64,000 nucleotides of DNA, taken from Escherichia phage vB-Eco-KMB39. The stretch lies in the sequence record OR539219.1. One strand, written 5' to 3'. The notes under the pieces are model-generated. The model saw only the letters and a program-made list of their open reading frames with translations. It was not told the DNA's origin and ran no database searches. This document shows positions 12,878-60,147 of the stretch, one piece after another. The stretch's first letter is position 1. The number at the start of each line of letters is the position of its first letter. A program made the position numbers and the translations under genes.

Positions 12878-13349
12878 TTGTTTTACCTAAAACAACAGTA
12901 GGAGCATCATCAAATTCATGAATTTTTAGCAAATTTGGATGTAAACTATTCCACACAGAAGAAATAAAGTATGATAAAGCATCTTCGTCCACAATTATAA
13001 ATTTATTTCCTTTATCTATTTTCCAACTATATACTGAATCGTACGAATAAAAAGATAAAGGTTCATCATTATATTTTTCTGTGTTAACATTAATGTATTC
13101 TGATTTAGTAAATGCTTCAATTGCTCTAAACGGAATATTTGGTACAGTTTCAATAATACCAATCTTTTTAAGTTTTATTTCAGCATCTTCTGGAACTGGC
13201 ATTGAAACGAAATTTTCTACGAGATACATAGGGTTACGATAACCCTTATCAATCATTACGGCTACAGTAATTGGAACATCTTTAGCAAACGACATGCTAT
13301 TACTGCTAATATACATTTCAAACAAAATCGCTTCCATAATTTTCCTCAA
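12852..13349 (-). CDS. hypothetical protein
   Basis: 165 aa ORF. Confidence 0.4.
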
Positions 13350-13678
13350 TCACAAGATGTAGATGAACAACTAGAATCACAAGAACTTCCACATGAATCG
13401 CCCGCCCATACATGAACAGGAACATTAGTGTCATATGAATCAGAACTAGACTGTGTATTAGATGATGTAGTAGGTGTTGACCAGCGCCAAGGATTTTTAT
13501 AATATTCCTGGGCTTCTTCATAAGTCATAGTAACTGCTTCTACTGTTCCATCTCCCATATAAACATATTCAACTACAGTTAAAGGAAGGTAGTCATTTGA
13601 AATAGGAACTACACCTTCTCCGGGAGTTGTAGAGAAAAAATCCGTAAAGAAATTTTTAAACCAATTAAAGATAAACAT
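13346..13678 (-). CDS. hypothetical protein with Cys/Ser-rich C-terminal tail
   Basis: 110 aa; C-terminus [18 protein letters not shown]. Confidence 0.4.
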
Positions 13679-13884
13679 TACAAAAAGCCTCTCTTGAATT
13701 CAACTTGCTTCTCGCCATAATCATATCGAATCTCTGCATTAAATTCGACAGAACCATCTGCGTACATCATAAATGAATGCACAACAACTTCTGTAGACCA
13801 TGGCTGTAGTTCATATTTCTTCATTACATGTCGTGAAATGATAATATCTAAATCTTCATTTGGTTTAATCCAGCGATTTAACAT
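13678..13884 (-). CDS. hypothetical protein
   Basis: 68 aa; early promoter directly upstream. Confidence 0.4.
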   Translation of the reverse strand: MLNRWIKPNEDLDIIISRHVMKKYELQPWSTEVVVHSFMMYADGSVEFNAEIRYDYGEKQVEFKRGFL

Positions 13885-13909
13885 AGTGCTCTCCTCTATA
13901 AGATAATTC

Positions 13910-20816: not shown

Positions 20817-21665
20817 TTAATCAACTGCTATTGGATGAATAGCATTAAACTTATGAAACGCTTCTGATTTTTCTTTGCGCGAAACACACATGCGAAGAAC
20901 CTTTAATGGCTCGTCTTCTTCACCCAACGATTTTCTCTTTTCAATATTAGAAGTTTTCCAACGAGCTTGCTCTGGAAATTCTTTATTGATTTGCTCAAGC
21001 GCTCTATTATGTTTAGAATTACTACGAATTGAGCTGCATCCACCAGGAGCTTGTGCTTTTCCGGATACAACCAGATATTTGAACAAGGCCAAATGCGGAT
21101 AACCTTGATTAATTAAATTGAGAAATGCATACATATCTTCGCATAAATCAATTTTTCCATACCCAATTTGTTCTGTCGTAAGTTTTCCAAGGTCATACCA
21201 TGTATTCGTGAATCCATATGAATTTTCACGATAATTACCCCAAGATGAAGTAATTTTAAAAATTGGTAGACGAGCATGGCCATGATAATACCCGCAATCC
21301 ATGGCATCTTCAACATATTGAATCAATTCATAGAACTGTTCACGGGTTAACTGATTAATTTTATCTACGCAGCGACGATCATCTTTCTTTCGCATTGAAC
21401 TCATACGAATAGTAGTATCATCATCGATCATCCAAATTCGCTGACCTGCATACATATCAGTAATCGCTTTACGAGTACCAGCAATTCCATTGACATCATC
21501 AGGAATAGTTATAATTTTAGCTCTAGACCCGTAAGCGTCATAATAAGCTTTTTCTTCATGTTCACGTACTACAATATGTGGTTCATAATCAGATGGAAAC
21601 ATATCAAGGGCAGAAACTGCCCCTACACGTTGATAGCTTGGAATTACGAATTGAATCATTTCCAC
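20817..21665 (-). CDS. putative glycosyltransferase, GT-A-like fold (DxD), at the beta-gt locus
   Basis: 282 aa; motif RIWMIDDDTTI; lies between uvsX and 42 where T4 has 351-aa beta-gt. Confidence 0.5.
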   Translation of the reverse strand: MEMIQFVIPSYQRVGAVSALDMFPSDYEPHIVVREHEEKAYYDAYGSRAKIITIPDDVNGIAGTRKAITDMYAGQRIWMIDDDTTIRMSSMRKKDDRRCVDKINQLTREQFYELIQYVEDAMDCGYYHGHARLPIFKITSSWGNYRENSYGFTNTWYDLGKLTTEQIGYGKIDLCEDMYAFLNLINQGYPHLALFKYLVVSGKAQAPGGCSSIRSNSKHNRALEQINKEFPEQARWKTSNIEKRKSLGEEDEPLKVLRMCVSRKEKSEAFHKFNAIHPIAVD

Positions 21666-22396
21666 TCACCATTATAATCTTTTTTCGCAATATGAGTTTC
21701 GCCAGTTTTCCACCAATGGTCAACCAAATAAAAATGACGAGAATACACATGAAGGCTTCCAACATTCCATATAATGGAACCTGCTTTATACTGACGAGTT
21801 GAATCACCTGCATTCAAATCAGATACTAATTTATCTAGTACGTATTTTTGCCATGCATAATCATTACGGAATCCAAAGACCACGTCATTTGAACGCATGC
21901 TTACTACTGCATTGACTTTCTTATCACGAATCAGGTACTGTACTGTATTCGTACACATGAAATCTGACATACCATCTTTATTGTAGTCAAACTGCATAGA
22001 TGGACGAGTATAAATCATGATACCACGTCGAGAATCAGGATTTTGACCAAGTTCAGATAAACACATATCATACTGAGCATAGTTATCTTCTGACCAGATG
22101 GCCCAACCATAATTCGAGTTAATTTCACCTTTAGAAGATGCTACCTGTTGCCAAATCTTTGGCGTTTCGCCTGGAATATCTTTAACAAACAAACTTTTAG
22201 ATTTATACCATTCAAGTTCACGTTGAATGTATTCATCATTAAGAGCACCAAAAATAAAAGGTTCATCTGCTACAAATGATGCGCCAATAATTTCAATAGT
22301 TTTAACACCAGTTTTATCAACTACGAAATCTTTTTCCTTTAATGCAAGCCCCAAATGAAGACGGATTTCTTCAACTGTCATAGAGTCACTAATCAT
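21656..22396 (-). CDS. 42: dCMP hydroxymethylase
   Basis: 246 aa equals T4 gp42; thymidylate-synthase-like fold. Confidence 0.9.
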   Translation of the reverse strand: MISDSMTVEEIRLHLGLALKEKDFVVDKTGVKTIEIIGASFVADEPFIFGALNDEYIQRELEWYKSKSLFVKDIPGETPKIWQQVASSKGEINSNYGWAIWSEDNYAQYDMCLSELGQNPDSRRGIMIYTRPSMQFDYNKDGMSDFMCTNTVQYLIRDKKVNAVVSMRSNDVVFGFRNDYAWQKYVLDKLVSDLNAGDSTRQYKAGSIIWNVGSLHVYSRHFYLVDHWWKTGETHIAKKDYNGEWK

Positions 22397-39282: not shown

Positions 39283-39753
39283 TTAATCATGTTTCCACAC
39301 CCCATCGGTATTTGACCAAAGTCGCTGATTATCTGAACCTCGCCACAGCTTTTTGGTCGGAAGATTTTTCTCATACTTCCCATCAATAATAACATCAACA
39401 TATTTAAGCATTTCTAGTTGTTTAATATCTTCAAATTTATATCCTGTCCACAACCAAATGCTTTTATTCGGATAAAGATTTTTTACTGTTTGAACCACAG
39501 AGTGAATCACGTCTCTGTTATCAGGATAAAGAGGGTCACCTCCGGTTATAGTTAATCCTTCTATATAATCATTATTCAAACATTCAATTAATTGTTCTAG
39601 TGTTTCATCAGTGAATGGAATACCATTTCTAGCATTCCATGTTGATTTATTATAACACCCTTCGCATTTATGCAAACAACCTGTAACGAAAAGAACGACC
39701 CTGCATCCAGGGCCATTCACAAAATCGCAAGGATAAAATCTATCATAATTCAT
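39283..39753 (-). CDS. nrdG: anaerobic ribonucleotide reductase activating protein (radical SAM)
   Basis: 156 aa equals T4 NrdG; Cys cluster GCLHKCEGCYN. Confidence 0.85.
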   Translation of the reverse strand: MNYDRFYPCDFVNGPGCRVVLFVTGCLHKCEGCYNKSTWNARNGIPFTDETLEQLIECLNNDYIEGLTITGGDPLYPDNRDVIHSVVQTVKNLYPNKSIWLWTGYKFEDIKQLEMLKYVDVIIDGKYEKNLPTKKLWRGSDNQRLWSNTDGVWKHD

Positions 39754-41567
39754 TGGTGTTTAACCCTATGCATGATTTCTTTATTTTTACCGAGATTAAA
39801 TCCGCGTTCGTTCGGATTTCCCAAATAACCACATGTTCTTCTTATTGTGTTCATCTTTTTAGGATCAGTTTCTCCACAAATAGAACAAACAAATCCGTTT
39901 TCAGTAGGAGTCATTTCATGGGTACTTCCACATGTAAAACATTTATCTACTGGCATATTAACACCAAAATAATCTAAATGTTGTGCAGCATAATCCCATA
40001 CGGCCTCAAGGCCTTTCAAGTTATTTTTCATATCAGGAAGTTCAACATAAGAAATGTGACCACCTGTCGCAATGAAATGATATGGCGCTTCACGAGAAAT
40101 CTTTTCAAACGGAGTAATATTTTCTTCTACTGAAACGTGGAAACTGTTAGTGTACCAGCCTTTATCGGTAACATCTTTTACACTTCCATATTTTTCTGTA
40201 TCAAGTTTACAGAAGCGATAACAAAGGTTTTCAGCAGGAGTAGAATACAAACTAAAAGCAAACCCAGTTCTTTCAGTCCACTGTTTAAGACGAGCATTCA
40301 TTTTAGTTAAAATTTCTCGTCCAATATCACGACCGACAAGAATATTCAATTCGTGAATACCAATGTATCCTAGAGACACTGAACTTCTACCATTTTTAAA
40401 TAACTCAATTATATCGTCATCAGGTTTAAGACGAACCCCGAATGCACCTTCTTGGTAAAGAATAGGAGCAACAGTCGCTTTAACTCCTTTTAAGGAACTA
40501 ATTCTACACATCAATGCTTCAAAACATAAATCCATTCGTTCATTGAACAATTCAACAAATTTCTGTTCATTGAACTGTGTTCCAATATAAGAATCTAACG
40601 CGATGCGAGGAAGATTCAGTGTTACAACGCCAAGATTATTACGTCCATCAAGAATTTCATTACCAGTCGAATCTTTCCATACACTCAAGAAACTACGGCA
40701 GCCCATTGGAGAAACTGGAACTGAAGAACCAGTAATAGCTTTATTATTCTTAACCGAAATAATGTCAGGATACATTCTTTTGCTTGCACATTCTAACGCA
40801 AGTTGTTTAATATCATAGTTCGGATCATCTTTATAAAGATTAACACCTTCTTCAACAAACATAACAAGCTTAGGGAAAATAGGAGTTATCCCATCACGAC
40901 CAAGACCTTTAATACGATTTTTCAGAATTGCTTTCTGAATCATTCGTTCAGTCCAGTCAGTTCCTGTACCAAATGTAATTGTTACAAAAGGTGTTTGTCC
41001 GTTTGAACTAAAGAGAGTATTTACTTCATATTCATAAGCTTGGAATGCATCGTATACATCTTTTTCTGTTTTAGATTGAGCATAATTCAACGCATCAGCG
41101 ATTTGCCATTTTTCTGCATCCTCAATATGTTTTGCATAGGTGCGTTTAACATAAGGAGAAAGTACTTTATCTACATTAGCAAAAGTCGTTCCGCCGTATT
41201 GATGGGAAGCAACCTGTGCAGTAATTTGTGCCATAATTGCAGTAGCAACACCGATTGATTTAGGAGTTTCAATCTGTGCATTACCAAGCTTAAATCCATT
41301 CTCAAGCATTCCTTTTAAATCTACTAAACAACAATTAGTAAATGGAAGAGCAGGGGAATAATCAATATCGTGGAAATGAATAATTCCGCTTTCATGCGCT
41401 TTCATAATAAAAGACGGGACCATATTTTTGGCAATGTGTTTAGACACAATACCAGCCATAAGGTCCCGTTGAGTTGGAAAAACACGAGAATCTTTATTAG
41501 CATTCTCGTTTAAAAGGTCTTTATTAGTTTTATGAATCAATCCTTCAATTTCTTTTTCAATTGTCAT
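39750..41567 (-). CDS. nrdD: anaerobic ribonucleoside-triphosphate reductase, uninterrupted
   Basis: 605 aa contiguous; C-terminal zinc ribbon and glycyl-radical region. Confidence 0.95.
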   Translation of the reverse strand: MTIEKEIEGLIHKTNKDLLNENANKDSRVFPTQRDLMAGIVSKHIAKNMVPSFIMKAHESGIIHFHDIDYSPALPFTNCCLVDLKGMLENGFKLGNAQIETPKSIGVATAIMAQITAQVASHQYGGTTFANVDKVLSPYVKRTYAKHIEDAEKWQIADALNYAQSKTEKDVYDAFQAYEYEVNTLFSSNGQTPFVTITFGTGTDWTERMIQKAILKNRIKGLGRDGITPIFPKLVMFVEEGVNLYKDDPNYDIKQLALECASKRMYPDIISVKNNKAITGSSVPVSPMGCRSFLSVWKDSTGNEILDGRNNLGVVTLNLPRIALDSYIGTQFNEQKFVELFNERMDLCFEALMCRISSLKGVKATVAPILYQEGAFGVRLKPDDDIIELFKNGRSSVSLGYIGIHELNILVGRDIGREILTKMNARLKQWTERTGFAFSLYSTPAENLCYRFCKLDTEKYGSVKDVTDKGWYTNSFHVSVEENITPFEKISREAPYHFIATGGHISYVELPDMKNNLKGLEAVWDYAAQHLDYFGVNMPVDKCFTCGSTHEMTPTENGFVCSICGETDPKKMNTIRRTCGYLGNPNERGFNLGKNKEIMHRVKHQ

Positions 41568-42037
41568 TTTAAACTCTTTCTAAGCTGCTTCTTAAATGAA
41601 GCTATTAATTGTGTTTTGGTGTCAGATTCATTATATTCAAATCCTCTTTGAAGCATCTCGGCCATCATTTCCTCTTTTCCTAAACGAGAAAATTCCTTTG
41701 ATTTATCTCCAACGAAGTTAGGGTGAATATTATTTTGGGTGTAATCGGATTTTAAATAAGTAAGTAAATTTTCTAACCATTCAAGATAATCAACGCCTTG
41801 TCCCTTTAAACCAGAGCGATTAAATTTATGTTTCATTTGACCTTCTGCAGCATTGCAGAGATTACAAAGCAATCCACGTACCTTTCCTGCTTTTGGTCCA
41901 TTTAATTCATGGTCATGATCGAGGTGATTAGCTTGAACATCAGGATTTAGTTCTCGTTGGCAAATTAAGCATTTACCGTTTTGTGCATCATAAAATTTCT
42001 GTTTTTCTTCTTTATATAATTTGCCAGTCAATAACAT
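41564..42037 (-). CDS. 49: endonuclease VII (Holliday junction resolvase)
   Basis: 157 aa equals T4 endo VII; zinc motif CLICQ...CNLCN. Confidence 0.85.
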   Translation of the reverse strand: MLLTGKLYKEEKQKFYDAQNGKCLICQRELNPDVQANHLDHDHELNGPKAGKVRGLLCNLCNAAEGQMKHKFNRSGLKGQGVDYLEWLENLLTYLKSDYTQNNIHPNFVGDKSKEFSRLGKEEMMAEMLQRGFEYNESDTKTQLIASFKKQLRKSLK

Positions 42038-44304: not shown

Positions 44305-45230
44305 TTCAATACCTCAATAGCATTACGTAAACCATTTGCTTTTGCATTAAGAGCTTTTAACAATTTGGTGTGTTCTGCAATTTGGGCTTCAACTCCAATC
44401 AAACGGGCATTGAGATATTCACGTTCTTCACTCAGATTATCAACCTTTTCTACTTTAGGCTCTTTTACAACTGTCTTATATGTATTAGGGTTCTTCAGTT
44501 TAATTAGAATGCGTGAACTGTATAACATTGAACCATTATCTTCGGTTTCGTCATACATTTCCACTACGTCCATAATTTTTAACATCATGCGGAGTTTATA
44601 AGACAACGAACGAATAGTTTTGTTGTGCTTATTAATTTCTTTAGCTGTCATGGTGCCAAGATTACGTGAGTAATAATAAGGAACCTGGATATTAATTAAT
44701 ACTGATGAACCACCTGGCTTGTGTGTTACTTCATCAGCAATAACCCAGTCCTTAACATGAACTGTATTTGTACGGTCATCGCCCGCGGTAAATAGTTTGC
44801 GAGCATGCTTAAAAAGCATATTCACTTGGTCATTGAATTGACAAGCAAATTTATCAGCAAATTTAGTTTCAGGAATGGTAGAAAACCAATCAGCCAAATG
44901 AGTCTTTTTAACATCATTAACAATAGTAAATTCAACCAAATCGGTTATAGATGTCTCAGATTTAATGAAGCTCGGCTTCATAAAGTTTTTAATGTTCTCA
45001 TGAGCTACAGTAGAAGATAACATACGAGAACGTTTAAACCATTCAAGCAAATTGCCTAACGAATGAGAATAAGCGTTTTGAGTATCTTTACAGATATGAT
45101 TTTCCTGGCTAACATATTGAAGGAAATCACGAAGAATATTATTGATTACTGCTCTGTGTCCGATCTGATAATTACGATGTTTAGTAATAAGACTGTCAAA
45201 ATAATCAATATAATGTTTACGAGTTTTCAT
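44301..45230 (-). CDS. hypothetical protein with C-terminal coiled coil (tandem family member A)
   Basis: 309 aa; starts MKTR; heptad-like C-terminal 40 aa. Confidence 0.5.
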   Translation of the reverse strand: MKTRKHYIDYFDSLITKHRNYQIGHRAVINNILRDFLQYVSQENHICKDTQNAYSHSLGNLLEWFKRSRMLSSTVAHENIKNFMKPSFIKSETSITDLVEFTIVNDVKKTHLADWFSTIPETKFADKFACQFNDQVNMLFKHARKLFTAGDDRTNTVHVKDWVIADEVTHKPGGSSVLINIQVPYYYSRNLGTMTAKEINKHNKTIRSLSYKLRMMLKIMDVVEMYDETEDNGSMLYSSRILIKLKNPNTYKTVVKEPKVEKVDNLSEEREYLNARLIGVEAQIAEHTKLLKALNAKANGLRNAIEVLK

Positions 45231-45284
45231 GTTCTTCTCACTTGGTTAATGATTTATACTCCGAGCCATCCTTGGCTTTAAATT

Positions 45285-46316
45285 TTACTTAATTAACTGT
45301 AAAGCCTGTTCTAAACGATCAAGACGATTAACAGATTCTTCCCAAATCCTTTTAGCCTGCTCATATTCTTTCTGCGCTTTATTAGAAATTTCTAGAACTT
45401 CTTTATAAGCTTTTTCTAATGCAATAACTTCTGGACGAATTTCTACCTGTTCAGGTGAATCATCAAGACATTCCATTAGTTCCTCAAGGGTAGTTTCTTC
45501 TTTAGGAGTATTCACAATTTCATCACATTTTTGTTGGTAAATTTCTTTATTAGTCGGTGAGTACGCACACTTTACTTCACGAAGACTAATTATAATTTTA
45601 TATCCTTCCCATCCACACATATTTTTGAAAGGATATGTATGAATACTTTTTACAGTTTCCATACAGCCCAAAGCCGTCTCTAATTGATGAGTTATAGTGC
45701 TAGCAATTGAGAAAAATTTATTAATGTTCTTTTGATTAGCTGCTGGTGTAAAAAATCCATAATTCACAAAAATAGCTACTTTATTTTTATCAAGCTCATA
45801 TTCTTTTACGATAATCATATCAGAAGCCAAAGGATGAATTTGACGATAATCGCCATAACATAATTTAGAAGCTGATTTTAGAATTTGTCCTTTGAAAAGT
45901 CTGAAATTACTAATCCAACGACGAGTAAAAATATTCTCAGGGTCTTCTTTGATATTAAGATGATAAGAATTAACATCACCGAACCAATTATATCCTACTA
46001 CATCTTTGGTTCGTTTAATTTCTTTCCCAAAATTACCAAGAATATCCCGATTAACCAAATATGAAAGAAGACGAGATCCTTTAAAGGTTTTCTTAATGGC
46101 ATCTTTATTTGTACGACTAGAAATTTCATGAACTTCATGAATAAATTTGCCGGAAGAAACAATACTTGCATCAATATTATTGAGCCATTGATTGATAATA
46201 GAAAGAACACTATTTTGGCCAAACAGCGGTATAACTTTATCATCAATAACGCTATTGAATGATTTGATATATTCGTTACGAGTCATATTAATCTCCTCAG
46301 TAGAAAGTAAGAACAT
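45285..46316 (-). CDS. hypothetical protein with C-terminal coiled coil (family member B)
   Basis: 343 aa; early promoter upstream; C-terminal coiled coil. Confidence 0.5.
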   Translation of the reverse strand: MFLLSTEEINMTRNEYIKSFNSVIDDKVIPLFGQNSVLSIINQWLNNIDASIVSSGKFIHEVHEISSRTNKDAIKKTFKGSRLLSYLVNRDILGNFGKEIKRTKDVVGYNWFGDVNSYHLNIKEDPENIFTRRWISNFRLFKGQILKSASKLCYGDYRQIHPLASDMIIVKEYELDKNKVAIFVNYGFFTPAANQKNINKFFSIASTITHQLETALGCMETVKSIHTYPFKNMCGWEGYKIIISLREVKCAYSPTNKEIYQQKCDEIVNTPKEETTLEELMECLDDSPEQVEIRPEVIALEKAYKEVLEISNKAQKEYEQAKRIWEESVNRLDRLEQALQLIK

Positions 46317-46344
46317 TATACCACATCCTTGTGGCGAAGTAAAC
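46315..46344 (-). promoter_or_regulatory. early promoter upstream of coiled-coil family member B
   Basis: minus strand GTTTACT - 17 - tggTATAAT; near-identical to promoter at 2419-2448. Confidence 0.6.
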
Positions 46345-47363
46345 TAGTTCAGTGCATTTAGTGCGTTGTTCAGTTTAGAACGTTGCTTCGTGAGATTTTT
46401 GACTTTTTCTTGAGCTTTTTCTAGCATCTTTTCAGCTTCTAGCACTTCATTGGTCGCTTTAACGAGTTCATCATCTACTGCCTTGATAGACTTCTCAATC
46501 GCATCCGCGTGCCATTTTTCAACAGGTTTAAGACTCGGATTTTCAATAGGAAGAAAATTCACTTTATTGAATTTCCATGCATCTTTATTGCCTGAACTAT
46601 ACATCCAAAATTTAGGATCGTTTGATGAGTAATTAGATAAATTTAAGTTATCTTGCACTTCTTGCTTTTTCTCTTGCGGGACTTCATCCTTTCTCAAAAA
46701 ATCGTATTTAAATGAAACGATCATATCAAGTTCATATGTTGTTGTATGTTCCCAATTTCGCTCAAAACGAGGTAAAATCTTAGAATGAACAGCGGCAACA
46801 ACATCCATATACTTAAATGCTTCTGTCAACTGCGATTTAAGGCATTCGCAAATTGAAAGAGAATTTTTTGTATTAGGTTTAAAGCTAATTCGTGCAGTTC
46901 TATTATTTTCTTTTAATGGTCTTACTTCCATCTGAAGAGTATAACCATCAAATTTCAGGTTCTTTAAGTTAATGTCAGAACCTTTTAATCGACTAGCCGT
47001 CGACAAAATTTGCTTTAATTGTTTACGGAATAGAGCAATAAATCTCCATTCAATACGATAATGATTTGGATTGAAAAATCCAGATGATAAATCGACCTTA
47101 CTCTGACCAACACCTTGAACAAACAGAGGATTTTTATAATCAATAGTTTTACAGAAATCGGTGAGCTGCTCACGAGCAGTCATTTGTGTAATATACCCCG
47201 CTTTACTAAAATGACGTAACCATTCACTGCTATTCATATATTTAAAGTGAATATCACGATTAACTTTATCAGGGTCTAAATTATTTTGGCACAAAAATGT
47301 CATAACATCACGAGTATAGCTGGCATTACGAACCATATCTTCAATTTGAGAACGAGTTTTCAT
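46344..47363 (-). CDS. hypothetical protein with C-terminal coiled coil (family member C)
   Basis: 339 aa; starts MKTR; C-terminal coiled coil. Confidence 0.5.
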   Translation of the reverse strand: MKTRSQIEDMVRNASYTRDVMTFLCQNNLDPDKVNRDIHFKYMNSSEWLRHFSKAGYITQMTAREQLTDFCKTIDYKNPLFVQGVGQSKVDLSSGFFNPNHYRIEWRFIALFRKQLKQILSTASRLKGSDINLKNLKFDGYTLQMEVRPLKENNRTARISFKPNTKNSLSICECLKSQLTEAFKYMDVVAAVHSKILPRFERNWEHTTTYELDMIVSFKYDFLRKDEVPQEKKQEVQDNLNLSNYSSNDPKFWMYSSGNKDAWKFNKVNFLPIENPSLKPVEKWHADAIEKSIKAVDDELVKATNEVLEAEKMLEKAQEKVKNLTKQRSKLNNALNALN

Positions 47364-47371
47364 GGTGTTCC

Positions 47372-48274
47372 TTAAGATTTAAGTAAATCAACAATTTTAA
47401 TTAACTTTTCACGCTCAGATTTAGCTTTACTACTCAATCCAGATAGTCTAAAGATTTCATCGTCATATTGTTGAATAGAAATATTCAGCTCTTCAATCTG
47501 CTTATTAAAATAATCAATTTGTTCAGAATGTTTTTCGTTACTACGAACTGGTATAGGTTTTGTAGGCAATTTAGTTGAACTGGATTCATCCGGGCGATAA
47601 ATTAAAATACAACTTGAACCAATCGGGCATTTTGCTCCAGATGAATATTCTAATGTTCCGGCTTCTTTTAAAACTTCAAAAGCTAAACAGAGATGATGCC
47701 CCATATTAACATAATCTGTAGAGCGAGCTCTGATATAATAATCATCGCCACGAGTACTAAATTTAAAGCATTTAAGGTCTTCTGTATTATTGGTCTTAAA
47801 AATCATTTGTTTATCTAGACCTTTAGCTAATCGAGCGCCTAATGCTAATAATCGTCGTTGATTTTCCCACAAATCCGCAATCATTTGATCGAATGACAAT
47901 TTCGGCATTAGTCGACCATAAAGGTCATATCCTTTATTATAATTGCGAAGGATTTCACTCGCGTTAATACGAGACAATGCTCCAATTTTATTAAGGGCTT
48001 TCATGATGCGATTAGATAAACCCATTCCAGACCCGTTTGTTCGTTGTAAATGTTTTTCTAATCCAAATCCAATATCAACTTTAAATTTATCTAAAATTTC
48101 AGCATGAACATCTCTGTCAATAACATTCAAATCCAAAGTTGGGTTAAATCTATGAAAAAATTTATCTGGCTCTCCACGACGAAGTACAGTCCATTCATTT
48201 AATTTTTTATTAACTAAAGATTTAATTACTGCATTGACATTATTAATTACTACTGACATATTTTTCTCACTCAA
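47372..48274 (-). CDS. hypothetical protein with C-terminal coiled coil (family member D)
   Basis: 300 aa; C-terminal coiled coil. Confidence 0.5.
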   Translation of the reverse strand: MSEKNMSVVINNVNAVIKSLVNKKLNEWTVLRRGEPDKFFHRFNPTLDLNVIDRDVHAEILDKFKVDIGFGLEKHLQRTNGSGMGLSNRIMKALNKIGALSRINASEILRNYNKGYDLYGRLMPKLSFDQMIADLWENQRRLLALGARLAKGLDKQMIFKTNNTEDLKCFKFSTRGDDYYIRARSTDYVNMGHHLCLAFEVLKEAGTLEYSSGAKCPIGSSCILIYRPDESSSTKLPTKPIPVRSNEKHSEQIDYFNKQIEELNISIQQYDDEIFRLSGLSSKAKSEREKLIKIVDLLKS

Positions 48275-48675
48275 TTTTCAATTTTACTAAATACACAGAA
48301 TATGATGGAAAAGACTATATAAGCACCGCATACAGATTGAACTAATACCATTCCAAAGAACCAAACAATATTATCAAACACTGTCTGTTTTACGTCGAAA
48401 GGACGTAAACTTACAGTAATATTATCGCCTTTTTCTATTGATGAATACATCTCTGGTGAAATATATTCACTAAATCTATAACCGTCTTTGAGTTCATATA
48501 CGGCAATAAACGATAAACTAGACCCCTTTCCTTGAGTTCCTGTAAGGGTATTAACTACAGTAACATCATAATCTTTATAATGCATATAATCATTAATTGC
48601 ATAATAACCATATGCAACTACTACACATAAACAACATATCAATAAATTCAATCTTTTAATTATCAACTGTTTCAT
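48271..48675 (-). CDS. membrane protein
   Basis: 134 aa; N-terminal and C-terminal TM helices. Confidence 0.45.
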   Translation of the reverse strand: MKQLIIKRLNLLICCLCVVVAYGYYAINDYMHYKDYDVTVVNTLTGTQGKGSSLSFIAVYELKDGYRFSEYISPEMYSSIEKGDNITVSLRPFDVKQTVFDNIVWFFGMVLVQSVCGAYIVFSIIFCVFSKIEN

Positions 48676-48730
48676 AATAATCTCAATTAAAAGGGCTTAG
48701 AACCATTATACCATCCTTGGTATAAAGCGG

Positions 48731-49258
48731 TTATGCGAGTACCGTCTTTAACCGTTCTTCAAACTTCCGAAGAGTATTTTGGCGTTCAGCTCTTTGCTTT
48801 TTGTAAGTTTCAATACGCTCTGAAATGAGATTGTATCGTTCATTTACTGATTCTTTCATAAAATCAGGAATTTCACGAGAAGCTTTAATCTCGTCAAATT
48901 TATCAATAACAGCTTGCTCTTCAGCAATTAAGTTATCATACATCAAAATATCTTTCTTGATGAACTCAATATCTTCTTGAGTTACACGAGATAATTTAGA
49001 TGCTTTATCCTTTTTGTACTGTTCGTTAGTATCACGAGACCAGTGTAATGTACGATTTTTATTCGTATTCTTGTAAATTTCTACAATACCAATCTCATCG
49101 ATAATAACGATCCAATTCCAACGAGATTTGTAAATTTGTCCTCCATCAACCGTGATTTCACCTCCAATTGAGATGTCATTAAAGAACTTGCTTTGTGCTT
49201 CTGATTTAAATTTACCATCATTGTAATTTACCAGGTTGAAAATATCTTTAGCGTTCAT
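48731..49258 (-). CDS. hypothetical protein
   Basis: 175 aa from internal Met MNAKDIF; track ORF extends through promoter-leader cassette R3. Confidence 0.45.
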   Translation of the reverse strand: MNAKDIFNLVNYNDGKFKSEAQSKFFNDISIGGEITVDGGQIYKSRWNWIVIIDEIGIVEIYKNTNKNRTLHWSRDTNEQYKKDKASKLSRVTQEDIEFIKKDILMYDNLIAEEQAVIDKFDEIKASREIPDFMKESVNERYNLISERIETYKKQRAERQNTLRKFEERLKTVLA

Positions 49259-49261
49259 TTT

Positions 49262-49310
49262 GTGTTCCTCCGTAGTTGATAGTTGTATAGTACCACAGAG
49301 GAACGGTCTT
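49262..49310 (-). promoter_or_regulatory. promoter-leader cassette copy R3
   Basis: minus strand GTTTACA - 17 - tggTACTATacaactatcaactacggaggaacacaaaATG; 7-bp inverted repeat gttcctc/gaggaac flanks it. Confidence 0.55.
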
Positions 49311-49318
49311 GTAAACAA

Positions 49319-49633
49319 CTAAAAGAAACTTCTTTCACAATTTTTTCCACTGAACCAAGCGCTCACTGCTTTCTTAGTCTCAGGAGCAGTGTTATCCATA
49401 AACCATTCAAAGGCAGCCTTTTTATGATTCTGGAGGGCTTCTCGGGCTTTAATCTGCTCACGGTCTATTAACACTAACATATGAGCCTTTCTTGTCACCA
49501 AGGGCTTCTTATGATTTTTTGAATACTCCCAATCATTTGTCCATCGCATCGTTGTTGCGAACTGAAATACTGCTTCTTTAATTTTAGTTTCGTAAATTTC
49601 ACGAGCCTTTGAGTATAACATTACTACCTCCAT
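49319..49633 (-). CDS. hypothetical protein
   Basis: 104 aa ORF. Confidence 0.4.
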   Translation of the reverse strand: MEVVMLYSKAREIYETKIKEAVFQFATTMRWTNDWEYSKNHKKPLVTRKAHMLVLIDREQIKAREALQNHKKAAFEWFMDNTAPETKKAVSAWFSGKNCERSFF

Positions 49634-49722
49634 TTACCAGTTTAATTCTAGTCATCTTTTTGATGGCAGTCCATATAATCTATTTCTGAACTGCCTTTTT
49701 ATCTTAGAAGGCCTCTTATGAA

Positions 49723-50691
49723 TTATTTCAGAAGAGTAACCTCAGCGATTTCTTCCCAACCGTCTTTATCGGTCATAATAAAGTCAGCAAGATAAAGAGC
49801 AGTACGCAGTGAAACATTGCGTAAACGATTAACATTGACTTTCATCCATGATAATGCTTTATAAGTTTCTTCATCAGAAAGACCACGCTTTTGCATCATG
49901 TCAGTTGAAAGAATAACATCTTCAACCCTGACCATAATTTCTTCATTAGTGTGAACACCCAAATCCAAATAAACTGAGCGGGACACTAATGCTTGTAAAT
50001 GTGGAGCAAGTTTAGTACCACGGTCTAATTCGCGGTCAATATCAACGTTTGTGATAAAAACAATCGTTCCTTTAAATTCAAACTCACGCTCAATGCCTTT
50101 TTCTTCTAAGTAAGAAGATGCGGTGCTCCAGCAGACTTTACGGGTCTCTCCAGTATCCAGAGCGGCTTTTAGAAGATTAAGAATGTCCATATCAGAGAAA
50201 ACATCCACATCATCAATCAAAAGGACAGAATTCTCTTCACGATTATTCCAAAGCTGTTCATAAAGACCGATACCGGAGATTTTACCATTAATGCTTTTAT
50301 ATTCAATGTATCCAATATCATTTGCTTTATTTAAAGCTTTATCTAAAGAATACGTTTTACCAATACCTGCTGCACCAGAGATAATTAATGAACGAATGTT
50401 TCCGTTAATAATACCATTCGTCATCATTCCCATAACATTAAATCTTTTATTAATGCGGGTTTTCATATCTTCATATGATTCTTTAACTTCTTCAACTTTT
50501 ACACCATCATATGAAATGTCTGATTTGTAAACCCAAACACCGCGACGTTTACCGTCAATTTCAACAAAAACTTTACCATCTCCTTGTGCATCTACCGGAG
50601 CATTATCTGGGAACCATTCGCCTAAGAGCTCAAAAGTTCCAGAGATTTCTTTACCGAAGTAGATACCCTTATTGATAGTTACAGTTTTCAT
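49723..50691 (-). CDS. AAA+ ATPase
   Basis: about 322 aa from internal Met MKTVTINKG; Walker A GAAGIGKT, Walker B VLLIDDVD. Confidence 0.55.
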   Translation of the reverse strand: MKTVTINKGIYFGKEISGTFELLGEWFPDNAPVDAQGDGKVFVEIDGKRRGVWVYKSDISYDGVKVEEVKESYEDMKTRINKRFNVMGMMTNGIINGNIRSLIISGAAGIGKTYSLDKALNKANDIGYIEYKSINGKISGIGLYEQLWNNREENSVLLIDDVDVFSDMDILNLLKAALDTGETRKVCWSTASSYLEEKGIEREFEFKGTIVFITNVDIDRELDRGTKLAPHLQALVSRSVYLDLGVHTNEEIMVRVEDVILSTDMMQKRGLSDEETYKALSWMKVNVNRLRNVSLRTALYLADFIMTDKDGWEEIAEVTLLK

Positions 50692-50695
50692 TTTA

Positions 50696-50765
50696 TTCTC
50701 CAAATCCGTATCAGTTGATAGTTGTATAGTACCATAAAGCTTTATGCTTGTAAACCGTTTTGTGA
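50696..50765 (-). promoter_or_regulatory. promoter-leader cassette copy R4 upstream of AAA+ ATPase
   Basis: minus strand GTTTACA - 17 - tggTACTATacaactatcaactgatacggatttggagaataaaATG. Confidence 0.55.
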
Positions 50766-50776
50766 AAAATTTTTGA

Positions 50777-50802
50777 AATAAAAAGGGAGCCCGAAGGCTC
50801 CC
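50777..50802 (-). terminator. intrinsic terminator after nucleotidyltransferase gene
   Basis: minus strand GGGAGCC-UUCG-GGCUCCC followed by UUUUUAUUU; directly upstream of cassette R4. Confidence 0.7.
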
Positions 50803-50804
50803 TA

Positions 50805-51818
50805 TCATTTATAATAACTTCGGTGGTTTTCAAGATAGACCTTCTCAAGGAAGTCATCCCAGAAACCCATGTCTACTTTTTGCTGCATACCGTTCTTAGA
50901 AGCTTCAGTAGATGCTGCTTCTACTTGATCGACCACATCTTCCAAAAACTCTTGAACTGTTTTAAATGGATGTTTACCCAACTTCACGTCGAGAATAAAT
51001 GGAGCGTCTTGAAGTGGATAAACTAAGTCACCAGTTTTGTAAATTTCCAATAGTTGAAGTCCACCACGACAGGCATGGCTCAGAGCTTTCCAGTCAATGC
51101 CTTCATTGGCTTCGGCCTTACGAGCACGTTCACCATATTCAGCATCTAATTTGTTCAGTGACTGCTTAAGCTCAATAAGAGAAAGCGTTGTCTGATATTT
51201 ACGACCCAATACAGTGTAGAACGTTTGTGGACCTGTTTTCTCATGATTATGGAATACCCATTCACAGAACTCGTTTTCTGGAAGACGATGCTTAATATCT
51301 TCAATTTTAGTGCGACGTTGTCCTTGTGTTCCATCTTCTCGGTAGACATTCCGTTGATCAGGAATTTGATTAACTACTTTCAATACATCACGTAATGCAG
51401 CCAAACGAGAACCCTTGACACCGTATTTAGAAGCTTGCTTGCGGACATATCCTAAATAGGATTTCATGTTAGTCGTATAAAAACGAGAACGGTTGTCTTG
51501 AATAAACTTCCACACATCAGGCAAATCAGATTTAACCACTAATTCAGGTGGAGTGTGAAGCATATCCAATGCTACAGTTTCACCATCTGCTGCTAATTTA
51601 AAGAAATATTTAAGACTGTATAGTTCATGGTCAATATCATCTTTAGTGTTTTTAGATGATGTGTTGTTAGTGTTTTTACTCATGTGCTCTTTGACATTTC
51701 CGATAAGAATATCGCGAGCAGGAGGAACAAAGATTTCTTTAAAATCTACATCAGATTCTGGGGTAGAAGTTCCATAAAGATGACTACCAAAATAGCTTTT
51801 CATTACTGTTTTCATCAT
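50805..51818 (-). CDS. Pol-beta-superfamily nucleotidyltransferase-like protein
   Basis: 337 aa; N-terminal motif GSHLYGTSTPESDVDF (GS...SDxD). Confidence 0.5.
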   Translation of the reverse strand: MMKTVMKSYFGSHLYGTSTPESDVDFKEIFVPPARDILIGNVKEHMSKNTNNTSSKNTKDDIDHELYSLKYFFKLAADGETVALDMLHTPPELVVKSDLPDVWKFIQDNRSRFYTTNMKSYLGYVRKQASKYGVKGSRLAALRDVLKVVNQIPDQRNVYREDGTQGQRRTKIEDIKHRLPENEFCEWVFHNHEKTGPQTFYTVLGRKYQTTLSLIELKQSLNKLDAEYGERARKAEANEGIDWKALSHACRGGLQLLEIYKTGDLVYPLQDAPFILDVKLGKHPFKTVQEFLEDVVDQVEAASTEASKNGMQQKVDMGFWDDFLEKVYLENHRSYYK

Positions 51819-52276
51819 TCAGCCTTATATTCAATAACAGGACATACTTTAGCTTTACGAGCTTTTAAAAATTCGACGATAATCGATTTCTTGGGTTGAA
51901 TAGGAGGTAAACCTTTATACGCTCTATCAATATTTTCTACGTGTAAAGCATAATCCTTTTTCCATTTATAATCTTTATATTTTTCACGCAAATGTGCAGG
52001 AATAACAAATGAACCGATAATAAGTAAAACAACCAAAAGCGCAAGTATAAATGCTGATGGAAGCAAAGTCCATAAACTGCCAAAAATAAACCAACGCTGT
52101 AGGCTTTCTGCACAAATAATTGTTAGCCCTACGAGTATAGCACATCCAAAAATAGAAACGAAAAATGTAGGAATGACAATAGACCAAAAATATGCGCATA
52201 ATGTCTTAGGTCGTTGCCATTCATCGTTAAACAATTTGAATAATTTATAGTGCCAAGAGTTTTCATTAATAATCAT
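51815..52276 (-). CDS. membrane protein
   Basis: 153 aa; 2-3 TM helices; stop overlaps start of nucleotidyltransferase gene. Confidence 0.45.
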   Translation of the reverse strand: MIINENSWHYKLFKLFNDEWQRPKTLCAYFWSIVIPTFFVSIFGCAILVGLTIICAESLQRWFIFGSLWTLLPSAFILALLVVLLIIGSFVIPAHLREKYKDYKWKKDYALHVENIDRAYKGLPPIQPKKSIIVEFLKARKAKVCPVIEYKAE

Positions 52277-52278
52277 AA

Positions 52279-52800
52279 TTATCCTTTCATTGAAGGCGTA
52301 ACGGTTGTTAAATACTTAATCATAGCTTCAGCTTCTGATTTTGATAATGAAATTTCTCCATTGTTTTGACGAATAGAAATAAAATCCGGATGACGGTCAC
52401 CACCAGCTTTTAAAACACACATATAAGTATCAACTTCGCCTTCAATATTTGAAATGATTGAAGCAGTTCCGCATGAATGCGGTTTTTGATAAATCAATAC
52501 AGCTTTTCTTCCACCATTTGACTGTTCATAGGCTTTTAATACATCAAACAAATCAGTTCTTTTATCAATAGCTAAAATGTTATTTTCATCTTCAATGTTA
52601 AATCCTTCGGATACTTCATAAAGTGTTACCCATAAATCACCGATGTCAATAACAGCATTTACGTTTCCACGGCTTTCAAGAGTATGACAAATTTTCTTGA
52701 TTTCATCATAACTCATTTTAATAATATCATCTCCTTGACTAAGAAAGATGTCATTTTTAAATTCAACGCGAATTAAACCACTTCCACTTGAAATAAACAT
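52279..52800 (-). CDS. hypothetical protein (paralogue of 52807-53361)
   Basis: 173 aa; C-terminus SKSEAEAMIKYLTTVTPSM resembles neighbour. Confidence 0.4.
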   Translation of the reverse strand: MFISSGSGLIRVEFKNDIFLSQGDDIIKMSYDEIKKICHTLESRGNVNAVIDIGDLWVTLYEVSEGFNIEDENNILAIDKRTDLFDVLKAYEQSNGGRKAVLIYQKPHSCGTASIISNIEGEVDTYMCVLKAGGDRHPDFISIRQNNGEISLSKSEAEAMIKYLTTVTPSMKG

Positions 52801-52806
52801 ATTTCC

Positions 52807-53361
52807 TCACTTTGAAATCATAGTTGGAATAACAGAATCAAGATAAGTCTTTAGTGCAATAGCTTCGTCTTTGTTTAATGTAATGATATGTGATCGAAAA
52901 TCGTCAATTTGACGAATAGATACTACATCTCCCTCTTCATAGCATTTTGAAACATTTAAAATAGTTTCATCATTCTGATTACAGGAGTTAGTAATAATAG
53001 CATTACATTTTTTAAACCATTTTAAATTATGTTTTCTTTTAGTAGAATCATAAAAATATTTAATGTTAGTTATAAAATTATCCCAATTATTAATTGATAA
53101 GCACATTGACTCGCTTTTAATATTAAATCCTGGGCATGAAGAATAAAAATGAATTTTATGCTCATCATTAATGCTTACAATTTTATCAGTGTAAGCATAT
53201 TCAATTTGGGTTAAACGAACAATTTCACTAGACGTAAAATATAACATATCATCTTCTTGCGTCAAACGATACATGTTATTTACTTTTTCTATAGCCAATT
53301 CACCAAAAAGCACACTATCTTCTAATACTAATCGTTTCATATTAATCCTTTTTATTGGCAT
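52807..53361 (-). CDS. hypothetical protein (paralogue of 52279-52800)
   Basis: 184 aa; C-terminus NKDEAIALKTYLDSVIPTM. Confidence 0.4.
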   Translation of the reverse strand: MPIKRINMKRLVLEDSVLFGELAIEKVNNMYRLTQEDDMLYFTSSEIVRLTQIEYAYTDKIVSINDEHKIHFYSSCPGFNIKSESMCLSINNWDNFITNIKYFYDSTKRKHNLKWFKKCNAIITNSCNQNDETILNVSKCYEEGDVVSIRQIDDFRSHIITLNKDEAIALKTYLDSVIPTMISK

Positions 53362-59552: not shown

Positions 59553-59730
59553 CTAAACGAATAGGTTCATGAATGCCATATCCCTGAACAGAAATTTCTG
59601 TCGTAGGATAAATTCCATCAATATCACCCATATTCCAGGCTTCATTAAATTGCTGTTCGCCTGAATTACTAAACCACTCGGCGAAAGCATTTAGCACATC
59701 TTCAGAACCTTCAATAATTATCTTTGCCAT
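59509..59730 (-). CDS. hypothetical protein
   Basis: 73 aa acidic ORF. Confidence 0.4.
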   Translation of the reverse strand: MAKIIIEGSEDVLNAFAEWFSNSGEQQFNEAWNMGDIDGIYPTTEISVQGYGIHEPIRLVEYDLCTGEEVKYD

Positions 59731-60147
59731 TACAAACTCTCGGTGAAGGTACGAGCGATAACGTCGCGCTGCTGTTCCGGAGTCAGAGAGTTAAAGCGAA
59801 CTGCATAACCAGATACACGGATGGTCAGCTGCGGATATTTTTCCGGATGCTTAACTGCATCTTCCAGAGTTTCACGACGCAGAACGTTAACGTTCAGGTG
59901 TTGACCACCTTCAATTTTAACTAGTTTCACGACGCAGAACGTTAACGTTCAGGTGTTGACCACCTTCAATTTTAACTGTAGGTTGTGTTTCAATTTCAAT
60001 TTCACGGGCATGCAAACCGTAGAAAATTTCCGGGTCTACAAAAGAGTCCTCTTTAAAGGTTTTAGAGACAATAATTCGTGCTTGAATACCATCTTCAAAA
60101 TAAATAGTACCTTTATGTGTGCCTTCAAGAATTTGATATGCTTTCAT
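59730..60147 (-). pseudogene. autonomous glycyl-radical cofactor (GrcA/YfiD-like) gene split by a 55-bp tandem duplication
   Basis: track ORFs 59917-60147 and 59730-59930 both encode [18 protein letters not shown]; distal ORF ends [29 protein letters not shown]; joined frame restored by removing one repeat copy. Confidence 0.7.
59868..59977. repeat. perfect 55-bp tandem direct duplication (2 copies) inside the grcA-like gene
   Basis: unit agtttcacgacgcagaacgttaacgttcaggtgttgaccaccttcaattttaact seen twice back to back. Confidence 0.8.

Follow-up and report, generated by a model that had tools for sequence, protein, structure and literature searches.

A 55-bp tandem duplication that splits vs.6/grcA in the genome record of Escherichia phage vB-Eco-KMB39 is very probably an assembly artefact

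Introduction

The closest described relatives of the gene considered here are Y06I of phage T4, the product of vs.6, and YfiD of E. coli, which PMC8683613 describes as the two "spare part" proteins with biochemical validation, able to restore pyruvate formate-lyase (PFL) once it has been cleaved by O2. According to Wagner et al. (2001), as related there, T4 Y06I takes its radical from PFL activase and rescues the O2-cleaved enzyme. In RefSeq, the T4 orthologue and that of phage G4507 go by the name GrcA (autonomous glycyl radical cofactor). The vs.6 gene is chimeric, joining a phage N-terminus to a host-identical radical domain; it is a known gene, and its structure is likewise known, if little discussed.

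A second set of precedents concerns the way in which phage genomes are assembled from short reads. For another T4-like phage, a SPAdes contig with 55-bp overlapping ends was said to have "indicated a circular genome", and one of those ends was trimmed before the sequence was reopened to match the T4 reference (PMC8483715). Internal repeats of ~79 bp in short-read phage assemblies have been shown by Sanger sequencing to be artefacts (PMC10438801).

Escherichia phage vB-Eco-KMB39 (record OR539219, 168,887 bp) is described in PMC11162368. Near the end of the window analysed here, by which we mean the whole 64-kb stretch taken from that record, lies an orthologue of vs.6 that closely resembles both described proteins. 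Once a single copy of an internal 55-bp repeat is removed, its 120-aa product (hereafter the collapsed product) is 98.3% identical to T4 vs.6 and is encoded in the same vs/regB neighbourhood, while its C-terminal 61 residues, the RVSGYAV motif included, are equal to those of E. coli YfiD/GrcA. It differs from E. coli GrcA in its N-terminal ~60 residues, which are phage-specific and unrelated at the DNA level, and it differs from both T4 Y06I and E. coli GrcA in that the gene, as deposited, is split in two. We argue below that this last difference very probably belongs to the assembly and not to the phage.

The gene and its host-identical domain

KMB39 is a Tequatrovirus, and the locus, in the vs/regB region, is 98-99.8% identical to that of hundreds of T4-like phages. 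The collapsed product scores 67 bits against Pfam Gly_radical (PF01228; cut-off 22 bits) and 154.6 bits against the TIGR04365 GrcA equivalog, the latter below the curated 170-bit cut-off because the phage-specific N-terminal ~60 residues diverge. As a stand-alone protein of 120 aa with a C-terminal glycyl-radical domain and the RVSGYAV motif, it fits the GrcA type of ~120-127 aa. It is also 100% identical to the GrcA of phage G4507; many Tequatroviruses encode the identical protein, which is present on 122 contigs in public data. Taken together, these comparisons support assignment of the KMB39 gene, as judged from its sequence, to the GrcA/YfiD-type glycyl-radical cofactors as the orthologue of vs.6/Y06I. 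By analogy with T4 Y06I and E. coli YfiD/GrcA, the intact 120-aa product would be given its glycyl radical by the PFL activase of the host and would then take the place of the C-terminus of host pyruvate formate-lyase after cleavage of the latter by oxygen. The same window encodes a glycyl-radical enzyme of the phage itself, NrdD (39750-41567, minus strand; NRDD 572 bits, plus Gly_radical), next to its activase NrdG (39283-39753, minus strand; Fer4_12 168 bits, plus Radical_SAM).

Within vs.6, a 169-nt tract on the minus strand (59746-59914, TTGAAGGTGG...CGTACCTT) encodes the glycyl-radical domain and is nearly identical to E. coli grcA. In 2904 E. coli genomes, grcA matches the KMB39 tract at 168/169 positions, and every one of 5426 complete E. 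coli genomes contains the tract itself; in G4507, the match to E. coli grcA includes an exact run of 167 nt. Over the 183 nt of the C-terminal domain, identity to E. coli amounts to 177/183 for KMB39, 178/183 for G4507, 180/183 for T4 and 179/183 for the Mosigvirus mogra, as against at most 167/183 (about 91%) for the best non-Escherichia genome in a panel of 80 enterobacterial and other species. At third codon positions, the Tequatrovirus and Mosigvirus phages differ from E. coli at only 1-7 of 61 sites; the median for bacterial species is 23/61, and 25-34 of the 61 sites differ in T5-like phages and in other genera of T4-like phages. Base composition follows the same division: GC content is 0.492 in the 3' part of vs.6 and likewise in the corresponding part of E. 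coli grcA, against 0.333 for the 5' part of vs.6 and 0.344 for the window as a whole. Identity to E. coli grcA falls abruptly at both edges of the tract. On the right, the tract gives way to a phage-type gene end (59730-59745, minus strand), where the last six codons of the gene show five synonymous differences relative to E. coli.

Inside the tract, KMB39 departs from E. coli grcA at one position only, 59811 (minus strand), where it has a private synonymous SNP, Ser TCC>TCT in VSGY. Among complete E. coli genomes, none carries the TCT allele in an otherwise identical tract, the best match being 168/169 and none reaching 169/169; Escherichia sp. MOD1-EC7003 does carry TCT at this position. A megablast search of window positions 1-59720 against all E. 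coli genomes returned no further E. coli-like DNA save one 51-bp match. That match (50737-50787, 94%) falls at an unannotated chromosomal site in just one E. coli genome, that of strain BE104 (NZ_CP040643.1).

The 3' half of vs.6 is, by these DNA-level comparisons, derived from Escherichia grcA. In being sharp-edged, of host GC content and near-identical to grcA from a single host genus, the tract resembles other host-derived auxiliary metabolic or mosaic genes of phages; it differs from them in that only the C-terminal domain is host-like and in that the edges vary with phage lineage. An earlier, sequence-only reading of this DNA had already recognized a GrcA/YfiD-like gene with a GC-richer, host-derived distal half, in a genome that also encodes NrdD and NrdG, and each of these points is borne out: the orthology with vs.6/Y06I by the domain score and the identity to T4, the difference in composition by the GC of the two halves, the host origin by the alignments to E. 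coli grcA, and the two nrd genes by their detection on the minus strand at 39.3-41.6 kb. That reading went on to propose a relatively recent host-to-phage capture, of which the host origin stands and the recency calls for qualification. The host-identical tract is common to Tequatrovirus and Mosigvirus, T4 included, and is not new to KMB39; being shared with T4 and other phages, it is therefore unconnected to the duplication discussed below.

The manner in which the tract has stayed so close to the host sequence is a separate matter. Its left edge does not vary among the Tequatrovirus and Mosigvirus sequences examined (T4, mogra and O157 typing phage 6 were compared), while the right edge is lineage-specific, with five differences within the final six codons of KMB39 and G4507, differences confined to the last two codons in T4 and to the last three in mogra. 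Between the two genera, the tract is 97-99% identical, as compared with 89-92% for the rest of the gene and 12-13/16 for the last 16 nt. Because the tract is less diverged between the genera than the rest of the gene, and because its right edges are lineage-specific, the pattern suggests that the tract has been homogenised against host grcA repeatedly, or still is, and was not simply captured once. The more specific proposition, that gene conversion from host to phage still goes on during infection and keeps the 169 nt host-identical, and that these do not descend from one ancient capture, is one that we advance tentatively and regard as possible but on balance doubtful.

It is observed, moreover, that the phage radical domain tracks the protein variant of the host. 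Klebsiella phages (Jiaodavirus, Slopekvirus) have the GrcA variant LLDAVEHPEKY, shared with the GrcA of Klebsiella, Raoultella and Salmonella, and the radical domain of E. coli phages carries the E. coli variant at the equivalent segment. At the nucleotide level, grcA of the Klebsiella phages is at most 88% identical to any member of the 80-species panel, a panel that K. pneumoniae lies outside. A search of the literature on grcA and horizontal transfer in phages turned up nothing relevant.

The duplication in the deposited sequence

As deposited, vs.6/grcA of KMB39, the T4 Y06I orthologue, occupies 418 nt (59730-60147, minus strand) and contains a perfect 55-bp tandem repeat whose two copies are directly adjacent (55/55 identity, spacing 55). 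Copy 1 (59923-59977) is the promoter-proximal one in the orientation of the gene and is 100% identical to copy 2 (59868-59922), a unit that is single-copy in the 40 relatives listed; the first 47 nt of the host-identical tract recur within copy 1 (59923-59969). Since 55 cannot be divided by 3, gene callers find two ORFs here. ORF1 (59917-60147, minus strand; 76 aa, ATG start) is deposited as WPJ71299.1 and labelled "pyruvate formate-lyase" in GenBank, and ORF2 (59730-59930, minus strand; 66 aa, GTG start), deposited as WPJ71298.1, holds the entire glycyl-radical domain. The two overlap by 14 nt and contain the same 18-residue segment, and deletion of one 55-bp copy yields a 363-nt ORF of 120 aa. 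On all of this, the sequence-only reading was correct: the back-to-back repeat, the pair of overlapping minus-strand ORFs with their common peptide and the frameshifting of an otherwise single protein of ~120 aa, with the glycyl-radical motif at its end, were each recovered as it had described them. It had left three explanations side by side, namely a real recent inactivation, a slippage-prone contingency state and an assembly artefact. The last of these is upheld by what follows and the other two are not, the same 55-bp signature being present in five of six sister genomes and the junction being absent from the relatives and collections searched.

Besides the 55-bp repeat, no tandem repeat in the 64-kb window scores ≥60, and a scan of every period from 20 to 400 finds no second perfect tandem duplication there. 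At the junction between the copies, the KMB39 record reads ...GAAACT followed directly by AGTTAAAA...; the junction-spanning letters are ...CGTGAAACT and then AGTTAAAATTG..., also written as ...CTGCGTCGTGAAACT and then AGTTAAAATTGAAGG.... The junction, ACT/AGT, has no shared bases and no microhomology. Within the duplicated unit lies a 14-nt perfect palindrome, GAACGTTAACGTTC, which is found at 59882-59895 and again at 59937-59950 and encodes LNVNVL; its role is not evident. We rejected this palindrome as the trigger of a real duplication, given that E. coli grcA and all single-copy relatives have it too.

In none of the comparisons that we made does the duplication extend beyond KMB39. All 40 relatives listed, of 793 matching phage records, span the region in 846 bp as compared with 901 bp in KMB39, and these relatives, being 55 bp shorter, therefore have a single copy of the unit. 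A 40-nt megablast query centred on the junction, which matches only records containing that junction, had no match among 50,697 phage records, and an exact 34-mer of the junction was in neither IMG/VR nor the JGI metagenome contigs. The proteins WPJ71299.1 and WPJ71298.1 are found on one contig each, at NCBI only.

The decisive evidence comes from the other genomes of the same study. Six of them were scanned for perfect tandem duplications at every period from 20 to 400, and five contain exactly one, always of 55 bp and at unrelated loci: the Murrayvirus KMB41 (OR539216) at 21484-21594, the Kagunaviruses KMB35 (OR525704) at 41411-41520 and KMB36 (OR525703) at 41155-41265, the Vectrevirus KMB47 (OR424385) at 41879-41988, and the Tequatrovirus KMB42 (OR539221; complete, 165,962 bp) at 125009-125119. 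In KMB42, vs.6 is intact at 363 nt. The sixth, the Tlsvirus KMB25, has no perfect tandem duplication at any of these periods. As a control, the duplicated region of KMB42 was compared with the phage collection, and colinearity over the full 531 bp is limited to KMB42 itself; each of the 11 further records listed for this region, among them an otherwise 100% identical phage and the sister genome KMB40, measures 476 bp.

These sister records invite a few further remarks. The duplications lie mostly under small CDSs that are overlapping, split or truncated, such as 21256-21522 and 21344-21715 in KMB41 or the "holin" at 41007-41258 in KMB36. The annotation of KMB42 contains name-driven errors, all of the nrdC.1-nrdC.11 ORFs (e.g. 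44598-52999) being called "thioredoxin", and modA.2-modA.4 (e.g. 13079-13897) being mislabelled as "molybdenum ABC transporter ModA"; the "pyruvate formate-lyase" label of the truncated ORF1 in KMB39 is an error of the same sort. KMB23 (OR525702.1) is 166,939 bp long in GenBank as opposed to the 151.5 kb, with 254 CDSs, given in Table 1 of PMC11162368.

Because six of the seven genomes from this pipeline, four of them unrelated phages, each have a single 55-bp duplication at an unrelated locus, we attribute the duplication in KMB39 to assembly rather than biology, a conclusion drawn from deposited sequences rather than from reads and about which we nevertheless have very little doubt. The study used MiSeq 2x300 reads, assembled them de novo with SPAdes 3.10.1, and after assembly performed a "genome zeroing", that is, rotation to a reference phage (PMC11162368). 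The same paper does not mention overlap trimming and does not state the SPAdes k values. Base 1 of the KMB39 window falls within 1-10 nt of base 1 in many records that begin, by T4 convention, at rIIA, and the start at this T4-convention origin means that the genome was rotated after assembly. A plausible sequence of events would begin with the circularly permuted KMB39 genome giving a SPAdes contig whose two ends overlap by the final k-mer length, 55. That end overlap would have been left untrimmed, and rotation to the rIIA start, as in the T4 reference, would then have placed the overlapping copies side by side inside the genome, by happenstance within vs.6/grcA.

The likeness to the k-mer terminal overlap of circular de Bruijn contigs is close: the KMB39 copies are identical, adjacent and of a length equal to a SPAdes k, and they occur in a circularly permuted, SPAdes-assembled and rotated genome from a pipeline in which the same length recurs. 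Where the comparison departs from the known artefact is in the k list, which is unreported for KMB39. SPAdes works with k values of 55, 77, 99 or 127, and its defaults for 2x300-bp reads would normally reach k=127, so that for the final k to be 55 the values must have been set by the user, the --meta or --sc mode chosen, or the reads shortened. We infer both the final k of 55 and the omission of trimming, neither of which is stated in the paper.

A real and recent 55-bp duplication, produced by illegitimate recombination or replication slippage and inactivating vs.6/grcA in the KMB39 stock, would account for the deposited sequence just as it stands. As a non-essential accessory gene, vs.6 could be lost by a viable phage, and the site lies within the only tract that is identical between phage and host, where an aberrant phage-host recombination is imaginable. 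Both copies, however, bear the phage-specific left end AGTTAAAA, so that no host DNA was involved, and the lack of microhomology at the junction is a further point against such an event. More tellingly, a real duplication would have to share its length with those of five genomes from the same pipeline, at unrelated loci and in four cases in unrelated phages, while its junction recurs in none of the phage records or metagenomes searched and its split proteins are limited to a single NCBI record. We consider this explanation highly improbable.

Still less credible, to the point of being almost negligible, is the proposal that the locus is in a slippage-prone contingency or phase-variable state, or that programmed frameshifting or re-initiation yields a separate 66-aa glycyl-radical domain. 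It is true that ORF2 by itself spans the full Gly_radical domain (69 bits; 137 bits for TIGR04365) and that it overlaps ORF1 by 14 nt. There are, on the other hand, just two copies of the repeat, whose number is invariant among the relatives searched, and the evidence from the pipeline applies here with equal force. Expression of ORF2 by re-initiation or +1 frameshifting was rejected, there being no Shine-Dalgarno sequence upstream of its GTG start and no plausible slippery site for the +1 shift that would be required.

If the duplication is, as we conclude, an assembly artefact, there is still the question of why the contig should have broken in grcA. The 55-bp unit overlaps the only host-identical tract, for which the probability by chance is ~0.35% in the 64-kb window and ~0.13% in the genome, and this position hints at a specific cause rather than at chance. 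One such cause, compatible with the artefact, would be a branch in the assembly graph created by E. coli reads that share the 169-nt tract. Phage preparations commonly contain host DNA, window positions 1-59720 offer no other E. coli-identical DNA, the tract is found in all 5426 of the E. coli genomes, and the low odds of a chance overlap weigh on the same side. Against this, the unit is neither the first nor the last 55-mer shared with E. coli grcA, beginning as it does 8 nt upstream of the boundary of exact identity, with AAAA where the host has CGCG; and the T4-like sister KMB42, which has the same tract, broke at 125 kb, 64 kb away. We therefore entertain a host-read branch only as a possibility, and a rather unlikely one. 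Alternatively, the graph branch may have arisen from a minor phage variant, Tequatrovirus having C (ACA) and Mosigvirus A (AAA) at the base immediately 5' of the unit.

Implications

For the database record, attributing the duplication to assembly would mean that a spurious 55-bp insertion is present in OR539219 and in no fewer than five further GenBank genomes of that study, with genes frameshifted or truncated as a consequence, and that these records need correction. The bogus proteins WPJ71299.1 and WPJ71298.1 have already passed into NCBI nr and downstream clusters. More generally, when a rotated phage genome shows a perfect tandem duplication equal in length to an assembler k (55, 77, 99 or 127), the duplication should be presumed an artefact unless reads show the contrary, and sister genomes from the same submission offer a cheap, read-free check for it.

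For the phage itself, the real KMB39 almost certainly has an intact vs.6/grcA of 363 nt and almost certainly retains an intact spare-part protein of the Y06I type. Should the 3' tract indeed be kept host-identical by ongoing conversion, vs.6 would offer a natural readout, the only one in the genome, of T-even phages recombining with the chromosome of their host.
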